Shown in pieces: positions 2,174 through 31,223 of a stretch of DNA of 33,297 nt; position 1 is the first letter of the stretch, and each line of letters starts with the position of its first letter. A model generated the notes under the pieces. The model did not search any database and had not been told where the DNA came from. It was given only the letters and a program-made list of their open reading frames with translations. Source of the stretch: a virus (Duplodnaviria; Caudoviricetes); IMG/VR virus record IMGVR_UViG_3300026196_000017, positions 1 to 33,297 of that record, one strand, 5' to 3'. The position numbers were made by a program, and so were the translations under genes.

Positions 2174-2273
2174 AAGTGTACCTACGTTCCTTATTTTTGC
2201 AAATACAGAGAATTTATTTTATTTTGGTGGTACAAGTGGTAATGTAAAGAAAAAATTTCACTGAGGTACCCTC

Positions 2274-4697
2274 ATGGCAGACAGTTTAGGACGAGACCCC
2301 CTTTCATATCTTGGGATTACTCCCGCAACCCAGGCACAAGTTTCAGCCGGTTCAAGAGACGATGTATATGTATCCCCTTTAACACTCGATCTTGATGCAG
2401 CGAGCACAACTGAATCGGGGGTGGTGCGATTAGCTACTATTGCCGAAACTACTACAGGTACAGCAACAGATATCGCCACAACTCCCGCGGGCGTGGCCGC
2501 AGTAGCCATTGCTGGCGCACCTGATGCCACCACGACCACAAAAGGTATTATCGAGATCGCTACCGACGGGGAAGCTGTAGCGGCCGCCAGCGGATCTCTA
2601 GCATTAGTGCCTTCAAACCTCACTTCAGTCTTTGCTTCTCCTCCCGGGATTGGCGGTACTAGCGCAGCAGCCGGAGCTTTCACCACTTTAACTGCTTCGG
2701 GCGCATTTTCTTTAACAGGAGATCAGGTTCAGGTAGATGAAGGGGGAACGGGCCTTTCAACTGTTTCAACAGGGGATCTTCTTCTGGCAGATGGTGCAGA
2801 TAGTATCGCAGCATTATCCATCGGCACAGCACGCCAGCTCCTTCAAGTAAACGCCGGAGGCACCACAGCTGAATGGGCAAGCAACATTGACATTCCCGGA
2901 ACGCTAGACGTAACAGGTACTGCAACTTTTGATGGCAATGTGAGCATTGCGGGAACCTTTACTCTTGCGGACCTCACCTTGACAGGTTTCTTAACCGTAG
3001 ATGGCCTCATTACGGGCAACGCTTCGGCAACAATCGATACCGGCGGTACTGCTCTCAACTTGGGTACGGATAACTCCGGGGACGCCGTAAATCTCGGTAC
3101 AGGAACAGTTGCTCGAGCCATTGCAATCGGTAGTTCGGCAGCAGCTCACACTATCACAATTGGTAGTGCGACAGGAGCGGCAAGCTTAGACCTTCTCTGC
3201 GGTACCGGGGACTTTACTATCGTTCCCGCAGTCACAGGAACAATTACTATTGGTGCCGCAACAAACACCGGGACTTTGACGCTTGGTAACTCAACTTCAG
3301 GCCAGCAGCTCGATATCAGCAATGCGATTAACACCGGCGCTCAAACAGTAAACATTGCTTCTGGCGCTTGTGCGGCAGATACGACAGTAAACATCCTCGC
3401 CGGCGCGTCGACTGCGGGAACGCAAACGCTAAATTTGGCAACCGGAGCAGCCGCTAGTTCTGTATTTATTGGTAACACAACTGGGGCTTCGGCTGTCGTT
3501 ATTAACTCAGGAACAGGCTCAATTGCTCTTGCTTCTACCGGAACCGGCGATATCACGTTGGATTCCGATGCCCTCCTAATTCTTGATGCGGATGGAGTTC
3601 TTGAGCTTAACAGCTCGGCCGGTGCAATAAGCATTGGTAACGATGCAGATGCACAGGCAATCAACATCGGTACAGGTGCGGCTGCTCGAACTATTACTCT
3701 GGGTAATGTGACAGGCGCTACAGATGTGGTGTTCAACTCAGGAACCGGCGGCTTTGCCTTCAACCCGACCGGGGCCGGAGATATTACTTTCAACGTATCT
3801 GCGGGTGGTTTAGCAGTAGTTGGGGGTGGAAACGCCATTGATATCGGTACAGATGCGGCCGCCAATGCAGTGACCGTCGGTTCAACAAACACAACCGCAG
3901 CTACAGTCATTCAATCAGGGTCAGGAGATATACAGTTAAATTCTACCGATGCAATCTTTCTCGATTGTGTCGGAGCATTGCAGCTAAACAGTTCCGCTGG
4001 GGCAATCTCTATCGGTGACGAAGCAGATACAGGAGCAATCGACATCGGTACTGGAGCAGCCGCAAGAACAATTACCATGGGTAACGTCACAGGCGCTACC
4101 GCTCTAGCTTTTAATGCAGGTACTGGTGGCATAGCTCTTGCTTCTACCGGAACCGGAGATATCACAATCGATTCTGATGATACCGTTTTAATTGACTCAG
4201 ACGGCGTTTTAGAGCTTAACAGCTCCTCTGGGGCTATCAGCATCGCAAACGACGCTGTGGCGCTTAGTGTGAACGTGGCAACGGGTGCCGCTGCGATGAC
4301 TACTACTGTCGGAAGCACAAATACTACTTCTGCTACTACAATTCAAGCTGGTAGTGGAGAGATTAGCTTAAGCGCAGCCGGTGCGGTAAGCATGGTTCCC
4401 GCCACTAACAGCGTAGCCGGTACATCCTTGACCCTCAACGGCAGAGTGGGTGTTGCGACATTCACAGGACAAACTACAGCAGCGGGAGCAAATTTAGACC
4501 TTACCATCACCAACTCCTCTTTAGGAGCTGGAGATGGAGTATTTGTTACAGTTTCGAATAAAGGAACAAATGATGCTGACATTACTCTTGAAGGGGTAAT
4601 TACTGAGACTGCGGGAACATTGACTTTGCATTGTCAAAACAACGGGGCAGCCGCGCTCAATGGTGACGTGATTGCGACATTTTGGATAATTAACTAG
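2274..4697 (+). CDS. Long tail fibre/spike protein, Gly/Ala/Thr-rich and repetitive, 807 aa
   Basis: Tail-fibre-type repeats near the N-terminus (ASTTESGVVRLAT, ATTTTKGIIEIAT), many short beta-type repeats (IGTGAAARTIT) and very few K/R residues. Confidence 0.7.
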   Translation: MADSLGRDPLSYLGITPATQAQVSAGSRDDVYVSPLTLDLDAASTTESGVVRLATIAETTTGTATDIATTPAGVAAVAIAGAPDATTTTKGIIEIATDGEAVAAASGSLALVPSNLTSVFASPPGIGGTSAAAGAFTTLTASGAFSLTGDQVQVDEGGTGLSTVSTGDLLLADGADSIAALSIGTARQLLQVNAGGTTAEWASNIDIPGTLDVTGTATFDGNVSIAGTFTLADLTLTGFLTVDGLITGNASATIDTGGTALNLGTDNSGDAVNLGTGTVARAIAIGSSAAAHTITIGSATGAASLDLLCGTGDFTIVPAVTGTITIGAATNTGTLTLGNSTSGQQLDISNAINTGAQTVNIASGACAADTTVNILAGASTAGTQTLNLATGAAASSVFIGNTTGASAVVINSGTGSIALASTGTGDITLDSDALLILDADGVLELNSSAGAISIGNDADAQAINIGTGAAARTITLGNVTGATDVVFNSGTGGFAFNPTGAGDITFNVSAGGLAVVGGGNAIDIGTDAAANAVTVGSTNTTAATVIQSGSGDIQLNSTDAIFLDCVGALQLNSSAGAISIGDEADTGAIDIGTGAAARTITMGNVTGATALAFNAGTGGIALASTGTGDITIDSDDTVLIDSDGVLELNSSSGAISIANDAVALSVNVATGAAAMTTTVGSTNTTSATTIQAGSGEISLSAAGAVSMVPATNSVAGTSLTLNGRVGVATFTGQTTAAGANLDLTITNSSLGAGDGVFVTVSNKGTNDADITLEGVITETAGTLTLHCQNNGAAALNGDVIATFWIIN
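3525..4225 (+). repeat. Internal duplication in the tail fibre gene (609-nt offset)
   Basis: GCTCTTGCTTCTACCGGAACCGG at 3525 and 4134; GAGCTTAACAGCTC at 3603 and 4212; protein repeat IALASTGTGDITxDSD...DGVLELNSSxGAISI. Confidence 0.85.
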
Positions 4698-15605: not shown

Positions 15606-17841
15606 CCCCAAGCAAAAAGACTTTGTGATGAACTCCGACGGTCGCTACAACCTGGCGATCGGTTCGGTTCGGTCAGGAAAAACTGTAGCTGCAAACTTCG
15701 CTTTCATGAGGTTTGCGGCTACAGACATTAAAGGGCCGATGGTCATCCTTGGAAAGACAGAGCACTCCATCAAAACCAACATCCTGACGCCCTTTGCCGA
15801 CATCCTCGGCAAATACTTCCACTACAAGGCCGGAGAGCGCAAGCTTTACATTGCCGGAAGGGAAATCGATGTAATCGGAGCGAGTGATCTTAAGGCCGAA
15901 GGAAAGATTCGGGGAGCAACCTATTCCGGGGCGCTAGTAGACGAAGCTACCGTCATCCCTGAGCCGGTGTTTCGTCAGCTTACCTATCGCTTGTCTGTGC
16001 CAAACGCTCGTCTCTTTGCAACAACCAACCCGGACAGCCCTTACCATTGGCTAAAGACAGGCTACATAGACCAAACCCATAACGAAGACATTGGTGTGAA
16101 GGTTTGGCGCTTTAACTTCGCCGACAACCCTACGCTTGACGAGGGATACATCCGCAAGATTAAAGCCGAGTCTCATGGCCTATGGTATAAGCGCTTCATT
16201 GAAGGAGAATGGGTATTAGCGGAAGGAGCGATCTACGACTTCTTTGACGAGAAGATACATACTATTCCGCACCAGCCCGGCATGGCGCAAGAGTACTCCG
16301 TAGGCATTGACTACGGAACTATGAACCCTTGCTGCTTTGTTTTGATAGGCTACAACCCCAACCTCTTTCCTCAGCTGTGGGTGGAAAAGGAATACTACTA
16401 CGACAGCCAAAAGTCTAACCGCATCAAGACTGACTCGGAGTATGCACAGGACCTGGCCAAGTTTATTGAAGGATTGCCGATCTCTGCGATCTATGTAGAC
16501 CCGTCTGCGGCCTCGTTCAAAGCTGAGATGCGCAGCGCGGGAATCACTAACATTTTCGATGCGCAGAACGATGTCATGAACGGCATTCGTTTGGTTACCG
16601 AGCACTTGGCGAACGGAACGATGAAAATATGTCAGTGCGCCCGTAATGTCATCCATGAGTTTTCTAACTATGTGTGGGATCTTCAGGCTGCCCAAAAGGG
16701 AGTGGAAAAACCCTTAAAGACAAACGACCATTGTTTTGTAGCCGGCACCCCTATCTTGACTGAAAAAGGTGAGGTTCCTATTCAAAAGATAAATGTAGGA
16801 GACAAAGTTTTAACACGTGGAGGATGGAACGAAGTAAAAGAGGTTTTTATTAGGAAAGCCGAGGTAGCAGAATATGAAATAATGGGTCTAAAATTAACCT
16901 GTACTCCTTCTCATAAACTATTTACGCTTGAAGGATATAAAGAGGTGCAAGCTTTGACACCTTCAGATATTCTGTTTACAGAATGGGAGGATTTGCCATG
17001 GATGAAATCATCGTTTTTGAGGGGAAAAAATACAGACGTTACCCGGAGTCTGAGAGAAATTCTGACCGCACCTATTTTAAGTGCAGAGGAAAGTATTTAC
17101 ATAGAGCAGTTTGGGAATTCCACCATGGCAAAATTCCATCCGGACACCATATTCATCACAAAGACAACAATCCCCTCAACAATGACATTAGCAATCTCGA
17201 ATGTTTGTCACCTAGAGAGCATTATACCCTCCATCAGGAAAGTCTTACTGAAGGCCAAAGAGAAGCTCGAAGACAAAACTGCGAATATATTAGACCACTC
17301 TCAAAAAAATGGCATAAGTCTCAAGAAGGAAGAGAATGGCATAGTAAGCACGGAAAAGAAGCATTCAAAAAAAGAATTCCAAAAGACCATAAATGTCACC
17401 AGTGCGACAGAGAATTTGAGTCCACCAAATACTTCAACACAAAATTTTGTTCAAATAACTGTAAGTCACAATGGAGAAGAGTTAATCACCTTGATGATGA
17501 AGAAAGAAGCTGTTTTCAATGTGGCTCCAATTTCTCAATCAACAAACACTCTAATACAAAATGCTGCTCCAAGAAATGTGCCGCACTCATGCGTTGGGAT
17601 AAGAAACGTCTACAACATGCACATTGAAAATGACCATGAATATTTTGCTTATCGACTATTAAGTAAAAATTGCATGGATGCCCTTCGCTACGTACTATTT
17701 TCTCGCTACCAGAAGCTATCGCAAAATCGTTTAACGCAAGAAGATATGGACAGATTCCATGGGGAAATATATGGTAGACAACCTAATTTGCCGGACTTTT
17801 TTAGAGATACAGGGTTAGAAGGAGGCCACAGGATTTTATGA
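15592..17841 (+). CDS. terL: Terminase large subunit (PBSX/Terminase_3-6-like) containing an intein; 749-aa precursor, 436 aa after splicing
   Basis: Walker A GSVRSGKT, Walker B ALVDE, TTNPDSP.HW, nuclease GIDYG and YVDPSA; the conserved NDH|CMDALRY motif is split by the insertion. Confidence 0.95.
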   Translation: MWELSPKQKDFVMNSDGRYNLAIGSVRSGKTVAANFAFMRFAATDIKGPMVILGKTEHSIKTNILTPFADILGKYFHYKAGERKLYIAGREIDVIGASDLKAEGKIRGATYSGALVDEATVIPEPVFRQLTYRLSVPNARLFATTNPDSPYHWLKTGYIDQTHNEDIGVKVWRFNFADNPTLDEGYIRKIKAESHGLWYKRFIEGEWVLAEGAIYDFFDEKIHTIPHQPGMAQEYSVGIDYGTMNPCCFVLIGYNPNLFPQLWVEKEYYYDSQKSNRIKTDSEYAQDLAKFIEGLPISAIYVDPSAASFKAEMRSAGITNIFDAQNDVMNGIRLVTEHLANGTMKICQCARNVIHEFSNYVWDLQAAQKGVEKPLKTNDHCFVAGTPILTEKGEVPIQKINVGDKVLTRGGWNEVKEVFIRKAEVAEYEIMGLKLTCTPSHKLFTLEGYKEVQALTPSDILFTEWEDLPWMKSSFLRGKNTDVTRSLREILTAPILSAEESIYIEQFGNSTMAKFHPDTIFITKTTIPSTMTLAISNVCHLESIIPSIRKVLLKAKEKLEDKTANILDHSQKNGISLKKEENGIVSTEKKHSKKEFQKTINVTSATENLSPPNTSTQNFVQITVSHNGEELITLMMKKEAVFNVAPISQSTNTLIQNAAPRNVPHSCVGIRNVYNMHIENDHEYFAYRLLSKNCMDALRYVLFSRYQKLSQNRLTQEDMDRFHGEIYGRQPNLPDFFRDTGLEGGHRIL
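16986..16990 (+). promoter_or_regulatory. Internal Shine-Dalgarno for the nested HNH gene
   Basis: GGAGG, 7 nt before the ATG at 16998, embedded in the TerL codons for W-E-D. Confidence 0.7.
16998..17627 (+). CDS. HNH endonuclease with two C-terminal zinc-finger repeats, nested out of frame inside the intein, 209 aa
   Basis: YLHRAVWEFHHGKIPSGHHIHHKDNNPLNNDISNLECLSPREH (HNH_3-type); CHQC...FCSNNC and CFQC...CCSKKC; frame is -1 relative to terL. Confidence 0.88.
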   Translation: MDEIIVFEGKKYRRYPESERNSDRTYFKCRGKYLHRAVWEFHHGKIPSGHHIHHKDNNPLNNDISNLECLSPREHYTLHQESLTEGQREARRQNCEYIRPLSKKWHKSQEGREWHSKHGKEAFKKRIPKDHKCHQCDREFESTKYFNTKFCSNNCKSQWRRVNHLDDEERSCFQCGSNFSINKHSNTKCCSKKCAALMRWDKKRLQHAH

Positions 17842-18077
17842 ATGATAAAAACTTCGTAGAGCAAGAAATGAATCTGGTCGCCGGGATAAAAGAATTTCTG
17901 GATCTTAATGGCTATGACGACTACCGAGTAGTGCTCAGCGCCCTCTCAATCATGCTAAGTGAGTTAATTGGAATGACCATGACAGAGAAAGAAATAGAAC
18001 TTTTTCTAGACATGTTCTCCAAAGCAGTCAACGGTTTTCATTTAGAATTCGGTCATCTCGTAGAAAAAGAAAATTGA
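17838..18077 (+). CDS. Hypothetical protein, 79 aa
   Basis: ATGA-coupled to terL. Confidence 0.55.
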   Translation: MNDKNFVEQEMNLVAGIKEFLDLNGYDDYRVVLSALSIMLSELIGMTMTEKEIELFLDMFSKAVNGFHLEFGHLVEKEN

Positions 18078-28658: not shown

Positions 28659-31223
28659 ATGGCTTACCAACCGTTTTACATCGCCGGAGTGAAAAGCGGG
28701 TTAGTCAGAAATCCTGAAGCGTTCCTTATTCCCGAAGACGCCTTCCCGACACTTGAGAATGCCTATATTTGGCGTGACAAGATTAAGCGCAAGCTGGGAT
28801 ACCAAAAGCTAGAAAGGCTTCAGCGAAACCTTACTAGTGTGAGCTTGACCAATACCGATGGTTCGGGGACCTATACGGAATCAGATTTATTAGCAGCCCA
28901 AAGAGCAACGCAAATTTATGCGCAGCTTCGACCGGGAACAGTCGTCATCACGATTGACCCGGGAGGAGGGAGCGAGACGATTTATAACGATGCGACAACC
29001 GAAGGGGTTCTGACTCATATTTCCGGACCTTTTACGGGGTCGGGAGTAATTACCTACCTTTCAGGTTCTCCCCCTACTTCTCCGGCGACTATTTCATTCA
29101 CAGCTGCTCCGGGAGCGGGTGTGACTGTCACGGCCAACTACGGTTACTTTCCCGGTTTGCCGGTCATGGCCATAGGAAACCGAGAGCTTTCGACGATAAA
29201 TTTAGAGGAACTCATTTGCTTCGACACTGTATTTGCTTATCGATTTAATACTTCGTCAAATCAATTTGAGGAATGGTTGCCAGGAACTACGTGGACCGGA
29301 ACAAATTCGGACTTCTTTTGGACTATTACGTATTGGCAAGACACGTCGCAAAATGATCTTTTTTGGGCTACAAACTTCACGACCGGGGATCCCATTCGCT
29401 ACTCAAATGGAGTGAGCTGGACAGATTTTGCCCCGGCAGTAGGGGCTACCTGTGTCGATGACGAAAACTTGGGTAATGTAACAACGCCTTGGAATAGCTT
29501 CGGGCCCGCAAGTGTTACGAATGGGGACGTCAAAGAAAAAAGTGTTGTCGTAACCGTAGGAGTAAAGGGAGAAGATGCCATTACGGTGCTTACTGATGAC
29601 GGGGCCGGCGCCCTGTCTACTTCCACCTCAGGAAGAAGCGACACCGGTACGATAAATTATTCTACCGGGTCCATTACTTTGACCATCAACCCGGCCTTAA
29701 CCGCTGATGCATCAGTCCATGTGGAGTACTGCTACTTAGGCGAGCTTTTACAGCAGTGTTTAGCCCTTATTCCTTTTAAAGACCGCCTGTTAGCTTTCAA
29801 TACATACGAAGGGGACACCCTCGTAGGAGCCGTTCACTACCCTCAGCGCCTTCGCTATTCTCAAAATGGCGATCCCTCAGATCAATTTGATGGTTGGAGA
29901 TCGGATATACCGGGGCGGGGAGGATTTATTGATGCGCCTACTTCCGAGCACATAGTCAGCGTAGCCTTTATCCGCGATATTTTAATCGTGAGTATGGAAA
30001 GGTCCACTTGGCAAGTTAGGTATACCGGAAACGAAGTTCTTCCCTTTGTGTGGGAGAAAATCGACACCGAATACGGGTGTGAATCCACCTATTCTACCGT
30101 TCAATTTGATCGAGGCGTGCTCCAAATTGGAAGAGACGCCCTTACAGTTTGTAACGGAAATTCTGTCGAAAGAATCGATTTGCAAATACCCGATGAAGTG
30201 GGAGCTTTTGTCAGCGTAGATGAAGGAAATCAACGAGTGCACGGATACAGAGATATGAATGTCCAGCTCGTGTATTGGACCTACAACTCCAATGGAGACA
30301 AGACTTTCCCCGACAGCTTACTTGTCTATAATTACGTGACAAATACTTACTCAATTTGGAAAGATCACTTTACAGCCCTAGGCCGCTGGTATCGCGATAC
30401 AGTGATACGTTGGCAAGACATTACCGTTCCTTGGGAAGCGTGGATCCACGCTTGGAAATGGGCATTTAGACAGCAAAACTTTCCCGAAGTGATTGGAGGA
30501 AATCAAAATGGGTACATCGAGATCTTTAACCAGCTTACCTACAATGATGTTAGCCTATTCATTTTTAATATTAGCGGGACTACTCAAACTACTATTAGTT
30601 GCATTGATCACAACTTGGTGGACAGTCAAATTGTGCGCCTACGCAATATTGTGGGTGACAGCAACAACACTGCTCTTAACGATGAGTTTTTTAAGGTTTA
30701 TGAAGCGCAAGATGACGATTTCAAAATTCTGAAATATGATACGAACACTGAAAGTTTTGTCGAAGTCACCCCAGGGTCGACCTACCTAGGGGGAGGAGAA
30801 ATCGAGGTGTGCAACAACTTCAATATCCTTTCCAAAGAGTTCAACATCTACGAGTCAGGTCAGCGCGTAATGCTTGGTTATGTAGATTTCCTGGCGGACA
30901 CCTCCGACGATGGTGAATTTACCTGTCAGGTATACGTTGACAGCAACTCAAACACTCCCATCAACACGGATTCTGAGGGCAATAGCATTGATCAATCCAA
31001 CTTTGTCAATAGCATCGTAGAAACCGATAAGCCCCAGTTCGAACTTCAAGGAGCCGACAGATATTGGCATCGATTTTACTGTCAAACAGACGGGACAGTC
31101 TTTCAATACAGGCTCTCCCTTTCGGATGTAGAGATGATTACTCAAGCAGTTTATGAATCCAATGTCACCATACATGCTTTAATTTTATGGCTCACTCCTG
31201 GGCCAAGGTTGATCGGGGGGTAA
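28659..31223 (+). CDS. Tail nozzle/stabilisation protein (P22 gp10 / T7 tubular B-like beta-propeller), 854 aa
   Basis: LEN.Y.....IKRK.G N-terminus; FKDRLL.F...RLRYS...DP...W, EYGCES, LVYNY....SI propeller motifs. Confidence 0.7.
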   Translation: MAYQPFYIAGVKSGLVRNPEAFLIPEDAFPTLENAYIWRDKIKRKLGYQKLERLQRNLTSVSLTNTDGSGTYTESDLLAAQRATQIYAQLRPGTVVITIDPGGGSETIYNDATTEGVLTHISGPFTGSGVITYLSGSPPTSPATISFTAAPGAGVTVTANYGYFPGLPVMAIGNRELSTINLEELICFDTVFAYRFNTSSNQFEEWLPGTTWTGTNSDFFWTITYWQDTSQNDLFWATNFTTGDPIRYSNGVSWTDFAPAVGATCVDDENLGNVTTPWNSFGPASVTNGDVKEKSVVVTVGVKGEDAITVLTDDGAGALSTSTSGRSDTGTINYSTGSITLTINPALTADASVHVEYCYLGELLQQCLALIPFKDRLLAFNTYEGDTLVGAVHYPQRLRYSQNGDPSDQFDGWRSDIPGRGGFIDAPTSEHIVSVAFIRDILIVSMERSTWQVRYTGNEVLPFVWEKIDTEYGCESTYSTVQFDRGVLQIGRDALTVCNGNSVERIDLQIPDEVGAFVSVDEGNQRVHGYRDMNVQLVYWTYNSNGDKTFPDSLLVYNYVTNTYSIWKDHFTALGRWYRDTVIRWQDITVPWEAWIHAWKWAFRQQNFPEVIGGNQNGYIEIFNQLTYNDVSLFIFNISGTTQTTISCIDHNLVDSQIVRLRNIVGDSNNTALNDEFFKVYEAQDDDFKILKYDTNTESFVEVTPGSTYLGGGEIEVCNNFNILSKEFNIYESGQRVMLGYVDFLADTSDDGEFTCQVYVDSNSNTPINTDSEGNSIDQSNFVNSIVETDKPQFELQGADRYWHRFYCQTDGTVFQYRLSLSDVEMITQAVYESNVTIHALILWLTPGPRLIGG

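Follow-up and report, generated by a model that had tools for sequence, protein, structure and literature searches.

How can an intein that has no nuclease in its own reading frame be mobile? The gene for the terminase large subunit (TerL) in a stretch of phage DNA raises this question. The stretch, hereafter the window, is 33,297 nucleotides (nt) long (Duplodnaviria; Caudoviricetes; IMG/VR virus record IMGVR_UViG_3300026196_000017, positions 1 to 33,297). It is a 33-kb phage contig with portal, major head protein, and recombination and replication genes, and its DNA occurs in soil metagenomes. A preliminary description, made from the sequence alone, proposed that terL is interrupted by a dual-coding intein whose HNH homing endonuclease is a separate gene in the -1 frame. 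That layout is what we find. We conclude that an intact HNH nuclease gene lies out of frame inside the intein, and that the two genes probably make up a single mobile element. Its parts are these:

15592..16731, + strand: TerL N-extein, 380 residues, comprising the ATPase domain and most of the nuclease domain and ending in K-T-N-D-H.
16732..17670, + strand: class-1 intein in the TerL frame, 313 residues, with Cys1, block B TxxH (T58, H61), block F from V293 and a C-terminal Lys-Asn.
16999..17625, + strand: intein filler (about residues 90-298), stop-free, weakly conserved and mostly predicted to be unstructured.
16998..17627, + strand: nested nuclease gene, 209 residues, in frame +2 (= -1) relative to TerL, with an HNH core (residues 6-82), a helical linker and two zinc fingers.
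17671..17841, + strand: TerL C-extein, 56 residues, beginning with the +1 Cys in CMDALRY; its D-A-L-R-Y codons are at 17677-17691.

The TerL open reading frame (ORF; 15592-17841) is open from end to end and encodes 749 residues. The N-extein matches Terminase_6N and Terminase_3 of Pfam and the PHROG terminase large subunit. The insert occupies TerL residues 381-693, exactly 313 codons running from Cys to Lys-Asn with Cys following, and its excision leaves 436 residues. A profile scan of both frames, suggested as a check in the preliminary description, places intein families in one frame and HNH_3 in the other. Within the insert, Pfam reports Hint_2 (E 2.7e-8) and Intein_splicing (E 3.7e-5, under the curated cut-off) in the intein frame; neither Pfam nor PHROG detects a nuclease family there, in keeping with the lack of a nuclease motif described before, so this is not a canonical full intein with an in-frame nuclease. 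In the shifted frame the same DNA matches HNH_3 (E 2.1e-18) and phrog_15471 (E 1e-36).

The residues needed for splicing are conserved. C1, T58, H61 and N313 are invariant across 57 aligned intein sequences, and among 129 relatives Cys1, the terminal Asn and a +1 Cys or Ser are present in every case and TxxH in 127. The AlphaFold model of the intein consists of two confident Hint halves (predicted local distance difference test score, pLDDT, 93-98 for residues 1-80 and 80-97 for residues 281-313) that flank a filler with pLDDT mostly below 50. All 11 Foldseek matches to this model at E<=0.001 are inteins or Hint domains; the best is the gp41-1 intein (E 7e-5, root-mean-square deviation (RMSD) 1.9 Å over 84 columns), which identifies the Hint fold. 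From this conservation and the essentiality of TerL, we predict that the intein splices itself out to give a 436-residue TerL.

The filler was said to be rich in Thr, Ser, Ile and Asn. Its 209 residues indeed include 21 Ser, 21 Thr, 21 Ile and 17 Asn, together with 19 Lys. Only two filler residues before block F are near-invariant, G128 and G194, and these are shifted readings of Trp39 and Trp105 of the HNH protein. The HNH protein itself is modelled with a mean pLDDT of 96.8. An alignment of homologues shows H35, H53, H54, N62, N66 and H75 to be invariant, and all eight Cys of the two four-Cys zinc fingers (C133-C155 and C172-C194), which had been proposed earlier, are invariant in 56 homologues. 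The best structural match to the core is I-HmuI (1u3e), with a modest Z of 7.7 (<8) and an RMSD of 2.4 Å over 70 residues; Foldseek with the HNH model returns nothing at E<=0.001, and the Pfam scan of the nested gene returns no endonuclease VII family at E<=0.1. A further in-frame ATG lies upstream at 16983. The HNH stop codon falls inside intein block F, 43 nt short of the intein end, and the third reading frame across the overlap contains 24 stops. The arrangement had been called invisible to annotation. This is true of the gene itself, as the exact HNH protein is absent from 15 billion called proteins among which the 749-residue TerL is present; it is not true of the family, 328 homologues of which have been called as proteins elsewhere.

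Which of the two frames is under selection? In 14 disjoint close pairs (2848 codons), the differences in the overlap number 191, 168 and 452 at HNH codon positions 1, 2 and 3. In its own frame the intein N-part differs at 94, 66 and 210. Each region is therefore constrained in the frame of its folded product: purifying selection acts on the HNH frame, and the sole constraint on the intein frame across the overlap is to remain free of stops, as the preliminary description had expected. The HNH gene of the window resembles every one of its 133 nested relatives more in the HNH frame (mean identity 45%) than in the intein frame (24%).

Non-nested homologues have a mean of 6.3 stops (intein-free; 24 of 26 clusters counted) or 8.5 stops (split; 28 of 29 clusters) in the frame equivalent to that of the intein, and just one of these 52 is stop-free. 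The stops arise from Leu, Ile, Val or Met codons whose last base is A, where an A or G follows, or G, where an A follows; there are 392 such combinations in the non-nested homologues and 0 in the nested ones. With the HNH protein held fixed and synonymous codons drawn from the usage of this genome, the probability that the window is stop-free is 0.0044 in the intein frame and 2e-14 in the third frame. The earlier figure of about 4e-5 was thus overstated about 100-fold, because only 14 codon junctions are able to create a stop in the intein frame. The same model explains why the -1 frame is always used, as it is the only shifted frame in which synonymous codon choice can avoid stops. As a separate observation, the sole intein-free HNH homologue that is stop-free in the +1 frame (L125:2422-3121) has two D-x-x-R-Y-like copies upstream.

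An empty allele of terL exists. It encodes a TerL of 436 residues, the length predicted for the spliced protein, with 97% amino acid identity over the N-extein and the uninterrupted site NDH-SMDAIRY (L237/P0121); against it, the window carries an insert of exactly 939 nt. A closer pair of a filled and an empty allele (L244 and L245) is 96% identical over 900 nt of N-extein. Mismatches between these two are concentrated near the site, with 22 in the last 200 nt before it and 13 in the preceding 916 (Fisher p 2e-9); on the 3' side 13 of the first 21 nt differ, the +1 residue being Cys in the filled allele and Ala in the empty one. This is the pattern that co-conversion from a more distant donor would leave. 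The G+C content in the window is 38-39% for the insert and 50% for the N-extein. Moreover, one pair of filled loci (L157:2228-3308 and L160:1715-2684) has exteins that are 98% identical, intein N-parts that are 91% identical and nucleases that are only 55% identical, which suggests that the nested gene is exchangeable on its own. The L157 nuclease carries a third zinc finger. Judged from the sequences, the nested nuclease is probably translated on its own and probably promotes the homing of the insert as a whole into terL alleles that have no intein. The direction of origin proposed earlier, invasion of a mini-intein by a free-standing HNH gene, is plausible.

How common is the arrangement? 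We fetched loci with an alignment of the HNH protein (a single-protein query against viral contigs had returned nothing), keeping the best 80 of 401 viral contig matches, 62 genome contigs and the best 80 of 400 metagenome contig matches, ranked by likeness to the window HNH. With 14 phage records and the window added, and L155 dropped for want of a profile match, this gave 236 loci with a profile match in 200 clusters at 95% nt identity. These comprise 134 contiguous inteins with an HNH gene in the -1 frame, 29 split or broken inteins, 26 intein-free loci, and 8 edge and 3 partial clusters that were left unclassified, proportions that are tilted towards nested forms by the ranking. No contiguous intein among the 200 clusters has its HNH in frame or shifted by +1. 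The HNH frame passes an integrity filter in 130 of the 134 nested loci, and the other four lack only the second CxxC; decay of this frame in homologues, which would have spoken against the dual-coding proposal, is not what we see.

Every intein with readable flanks is in TerL beside the C-terminal D-x-x-R-Y motif, in insertion registers that account for 77, 40, 10 and 2 of 129 loci. At least four adjoining registers around the same Asp can be distinguished (before C-x-D, before C-D, after D-A, and further upstream), and they are mixed on the intein tree. There are other forms too. A search for longer proteins found one fully in-frame HNH intein at the same motif (P0244), as well as three proteins in which the intein N-part is joined to HNH and no C-part follows (P0241, P0243, P0246); CL2 in L005 is another such fusion. 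Nuclease-free mini-inteins of 136-148 residues also occur at this motif (L268, L270 and L276). Among the split relatives, 19 of 29 have a C-half with its own ATG overlapping the nuclease 3' end. About 20 of the 26 intein-free homologues adjoin terL.

The family extends to cultured phages whose records call the gene terminase and nothing more (Tetrasphaera phage TJE1, Acinetobacter phage Highwayman, Clostridium phage phiCDHM19 and Rhodobacteraceae phage LS06-2018-MD07), and nested loci occur in genome contigs labelled as 12 phyla, two of them archaeal, although these are metagenome bins and possibly misbinned. The host of the window phage is uncertain, given that its DNA comes from soil metagenomes and that a 72%-identical TerL relative is labelled Chlamydiae bacterium. 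FastTree trees with midpoint roots and modest supports, which do not fix the direction of change, put 121 of 128 nested HNHs and 7 intein-free ones into a single clade; of the 28 split inteins, 27 group together. Extein and HNH similarity are weakly correlated (Spearman 0.28), and no pair of near-identical elements in distant exteins was found among the loci compared.

Several single loci deserve mention. In Exiguobacterium phage vB_EauM-23 (L008, about 2200-3130) terL stops at the D-H motif and resumes with C-D-A-T-R-Y after an HNH-bearing, intein-free insert that looks like an intron at the same terL site. In L045 and L108 (about 2275-3130) terL stops at the same D-H motif, with no resumption found in L045. 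Rfam detects no intron or other RNA at gathering scores in the window and four loci, and only one chance-level match in L008 and L045 at E<=1, so that it does not confirm the intron reading of these two loci. The elements of phiCDHM19 (L007, 1790-2779) and phiCD119 (L010, 1543-2532) are 99% identical; the phiCD119 record has six single-base gaps that break the terL and HNH frames, through decay or sequencing error. Gp60 of Mycobacterium phage Pacc40 (L280, 1301-2300) has an insert of 331 residues that is free of stops and matches intein profiles at its N- and C-terminal ends. A hidden HNH-like insertion in gp60 has been described (PMC11855218) and may be this insert.

If the nuclease is expressed from within the intein, how is it controlled? 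A feature absent from the preliminary description lies just before the HNH start:

16956..16970, + strand: second copy of the D-x-x-R-Y codons, GACACCTTCAGATAT, reading DTFRY in the HNH frame and lying within the LTPSDI codons of the intein frame; candidate operator.

We built a matrix from 135 true terL D-x-x-R-Y codon sites and applied it, with a threshold of 12 bits set once, to the 75 nt before the HNH start. The window copy scores 13.5 bits. There are three matches on both strands of the 33 kb, namely the copy, the true site at 17677 and a site at 29388-29402 (13.9 bits) that is inside an 854-residue ORF and is probably due to chance. Of the 134 nested loci 60 have a copy, as do 12 of 28 split and 10 of 24 without an intein, or 82 of 186 overall. 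The background is 1 of 1499 windows in HNH genes, 3 of 320 in the intein N-part and 0 of 10 control inteins; these controls came from phage records and TerL relatives, the intein N-part alignment being too variable for a scan of the collection. The frame of the copy in the 60 nested loci is that of the intein in 45 (DALRYGD on a Hint strand), that of the HNH in 13 and the third in 2. This independence of frame points to a role at the level of DNA.

The copies also differ from true sites in what surrounds them. The window copy overlaps a TTGACA (16954-16959) and a weak -10-like TATTCT (16968-16973). TTGA overlaps the site start in 27 of 82 copies and 12 of 135 true sites, and a -10 box at offset 20 accompanies the copies of 15 nested loci and no true site. 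The His codon upstream of true sites is kept in none of the 82 copies. I-TevI provides a precedent: it represses its own gene from an operator that is bound but cut poorly (PMC2988022). As there, what would be a copy of the homing site sits beside a putative nuclease promoter region and lacks the presumed cleavage half; I-TevI, however, is an intron-encoded GIY-YIG enzyme, whereas the copy here is inside intein-coding DNA. We lean towards the upstream copy being an operator, and the D-A-L-R-Y codons at 17677-17691 would be the binding site of the nuclease.

An alternative is that the layout is real and the nuclease homes, but that the copy is an inert scar of entry with no present regulatory role. 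It could have arisen because an 'xxLxxGD' strand of the intein resembled the target, or because the nuclease gene brought a piece of the terL 3' end with it. Free-standing homologues located directly behind the terL 3' end are a ready source of such a piece, the 45 copies in the intein frame are where D-A-L-R-Y-G-D suits a Hint strand, and 74 of 134 nested loci, more than half, lack a copy at 12 bits, which also tells against the operator, as does the fact that copies are barely closer to their own terL site (9.6 of 15 positions) than to those of other loci (9.3 of 15). A neutral scar should have decayed. Yet the copy persists among HNH genes that are about 45% identical and in all three frames, is not in the terL frame in loci with a split intein or none, where stop codons flank it in several cases, and coincides with -35- and -10-like boxes more often than true sites do. 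We regard a scar as possible but doubtful.

Signals for separate translation of the nested gene were found in the window and its relatives. The window has one:

16986..16991, + strand: Shine-Dalgarno-like GGAGGA, read from the sequence, 6 nt before the ATG at 16998.

A start codon is found near the start of the HNH profile in 122 of 129 nested loci, ATG in 106 of them (no null was computed), and its distance from the intein start is 218-281 nt (5th-95th percentile). Shine-Dalgarno matches of at least 5 bases occur in 32 of the 129 loci and in 3% of control windows. With the intein-frame protein fixed, 23 of 105 nested loci have a -10 box ahead of the ATG (6.1 expected), at a gap of 6 nt in 22 of them, a spacing that points to a leaderless message; another 23 of the 105 have a Shine-Dalgarno match of at least 5 bases (14.7 expected), and no locus has both signals.

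These signals bear on whether the nuclease is instead made by -1 ribosomal frameshifting, as a fusion to TerL and the intein N-part. Such fusions do exist in frame, as in the four N-part-HNH proteins noted above, and so does the fully in-frame HNH intein P0244. The start codons near the profile start, the -10 boxes at a fixed gap and the excess of Shine-Dalgarno matches all argue for internal initiation, and we consider frameshifting quite unlikely; slippery sites were not searched for.

We therefore favour internal initiation, and the mechanism that we propose is as follows. The terL mRNA would be read straight through, and the Hint domain would fold around a tolerated, mostly unstructured loop of about 200 residues and excise the intein. 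The nuclease would be made from its own start inside the intein, with a Shine-Dalgarno sequence in the window and an internal, probably leaderless promoter in about one-fifth of relatives. Its zinc fingers may bind the D-x-x-R-Y codons of an empty allele while the HNH domain makes a nick a few codons upstream of them, and repair from the filled allele would copy the intein and its flanks. The upstream copy, lacking the upstream half, would be bound and not cut, and could act as an operator like that of I-TevI.

Some of our observations weigh against this account, in addition to the tilt in class proportions. A penultimate His is common in inteins, if not universal; it is found in 86 of the 129 relatives, with Ser in 27 and Lys in 2, and the window has Lys, so that its splicing could be slower. 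The co-conversion signal comes from the single pair L244/L245, and the empty relative of the window itself, at 81-85% nt identity, is too diverged to show a footprint. A 5-base Shine-Dalgarno match appears in 51% of synonymous resamplings of the intein frame, and the match in the window is not significant alone. Finally, a promoter scan called nothing upstream of the HNH gene in the window.

Could the HNH protein have been domesticated as a cofactor for terminase packaging, kept for phage function and not for homing? The position of most intein-free homologues next to terL and the strong purifying selection would suit such a role, HNH proteins play this part in some cos phages, and the accessible text of PMC11855218 mentions that they aid terminases. 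The empty alleles speak against it. There is no HNH match within 2 kb of the L237 terL, despite its 97%-identical protein, and 30 of 37 TerL relatives have no HNH match in the fetched DNA. Alleles with and without the insert are found at 96% nt identity to each other and show a conversion tract, and the best structural match of the nuclease is to a homing enzyme, I-HmuI. A cofactor role is, in our judgement, very unlikely.

Lastly, the notion that this is an ordinary in-frame HNH intein, its shift produced by two compensating sequencing or assembly errors, has the in-frame form of one distant relative (P0244) to recommend it and is refuted by contigs from separate runs that have no indels, by 133 other distinct loci with the same frame relation and by the complete absence of stop-making codon combinations from nested HNH genes. 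The contigs concerned come from run X1, which may itself be the source of the record and covers the whole stretch, run X5 (two contigs, all but 71 bases) and run X6 (a single contig over 16400-17646, from a study none of whose runs is flagged as a possible source), and all match the window with 0 mismatches and 0 gaps. In run X7, from a wetland sample, a short contig matches window positions 17604-17693 (blocks F/G and the C-extein start) with 7 differences and then diverges, indicating another filled relative in that sample. Elsewhere around terL, a 130-residue ORF before it (15213-15605) and a 79-residue ORF in the gap between terL and the portal gene (17838-18077) have no Pfam match.

How does the element compare with known systems? 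Its mode is like that of published out-of-frame inteins, and its nuclease is outside their families. Non-canonical inteins of actinobacteriophages carry an endonuclease VII-like nuclease in frame 3 (Gosselin, Arsenault, Gogarten 2025, bioRxiv 10.1101/2025.01.02.630785). They too have a same-strand frame-3 nuclease ORF between the splicing blocks of a contiguous intein with an open host frame and unstructured in-frame filler, their origin is likewise proposed to be invasion by a free-standing nuclease, and terminase is among the four hosts listed. The window nuclease differs in its HNH_3/I-HmuI-like core and two zinc fingers, which set it apart, by description, from the Gordonia phage proteins. 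The accessible text of that preprint lists HNH only in frame and mentions no operator-like copy, and its hosts are actinobacteriophages; the family described here has hosts in about a dozen labelled phyla. The supplementary tables might contain members of the HNH/TerL family.

A cyanobacterial dnaX intein carries a LAGLIDADG gene in the +2 frame (Phillips, DeSimone, Gogarten 2026, bioRxiv 10.64898/2026.09.14.751524). It uses the same frame as the element in the window, and it too has purifying selection that differs by frame, a disordered filler and Shine-Dalgarno motifs ahead of its hidden start; secondary invasion is likewise the model put forward. Unlike the window, it involves a LAGLIDADG enzyme in a chromosomal gene, and the text available refers to no HNH, terminase, promoter or operator. 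The ShiLan domain, a hidden HNH in a phage methylase (Arsenault et al. 2025, PMC11855218), shares the out-of-frame HNH and the stop-free host frame, and leaderless initiation is proposed for both; it has no splicing domain, however, and the insert stays in the host protein, whereas here the gene is inside the intein of an essential gene. Fractured genes with split inteins (Dassa et al. 2009, PMC2677866) share their layout with our 29 split relatives. The loci in the part of that paper covered have GIY-YIG or Vsr-like nucleases, and the window intein, being contiguous, does not fit the layout. I-HmuI, which the HNH core resembles, is a nicking enzyme. We found no literature on an out-of-frame HNH in terminase inteins or on a target copy, in a search that lay outside most subscription journals and preprint supplements; PMC11878797 and PMC12403621, in the parts seen, have no bearing on the HNH/TerL element. 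What the present analysis adds is an empty allele, a footprint of conversion, a full set of intermediates and a predicted operator.

The element is real, under selection and widespread. About evenly poised is our confidence in the fullest reading, that of a widespread unpublished family of terminase inteins with a self-regulated nuclease, in which some 30 bases would serve at once as an intein β-strand, a promoter and an operator with a decoy D-x-x-R-Y site, and which would present a living series of intermediates: free-standing, nested, splitting, fused to the N-half and in frame.

What does this mean for inteins more generally? Out-of-frame intein nucleases have been called rare in print, and the HNH/TerL family alone comprises at least 134 distinct contiguous loci. 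Many inteins whose linker has been taken for degenerate may therefore be mobile. As one nuclease family is found in all of the intermediate states predicted by the long-standing 'splicing first, nuclease later' model, that model becomes testable on a single lineage. The upstream copy predicts both the recognition site of the nuclease and a form of autoregulation that has been shown, in the literature covered and as far as the parts seen extend, only for the intron enzyme I-TevI. And an intein that tolerates an almost freely evolving loop of about 200 residues would be useful to intein engineering.

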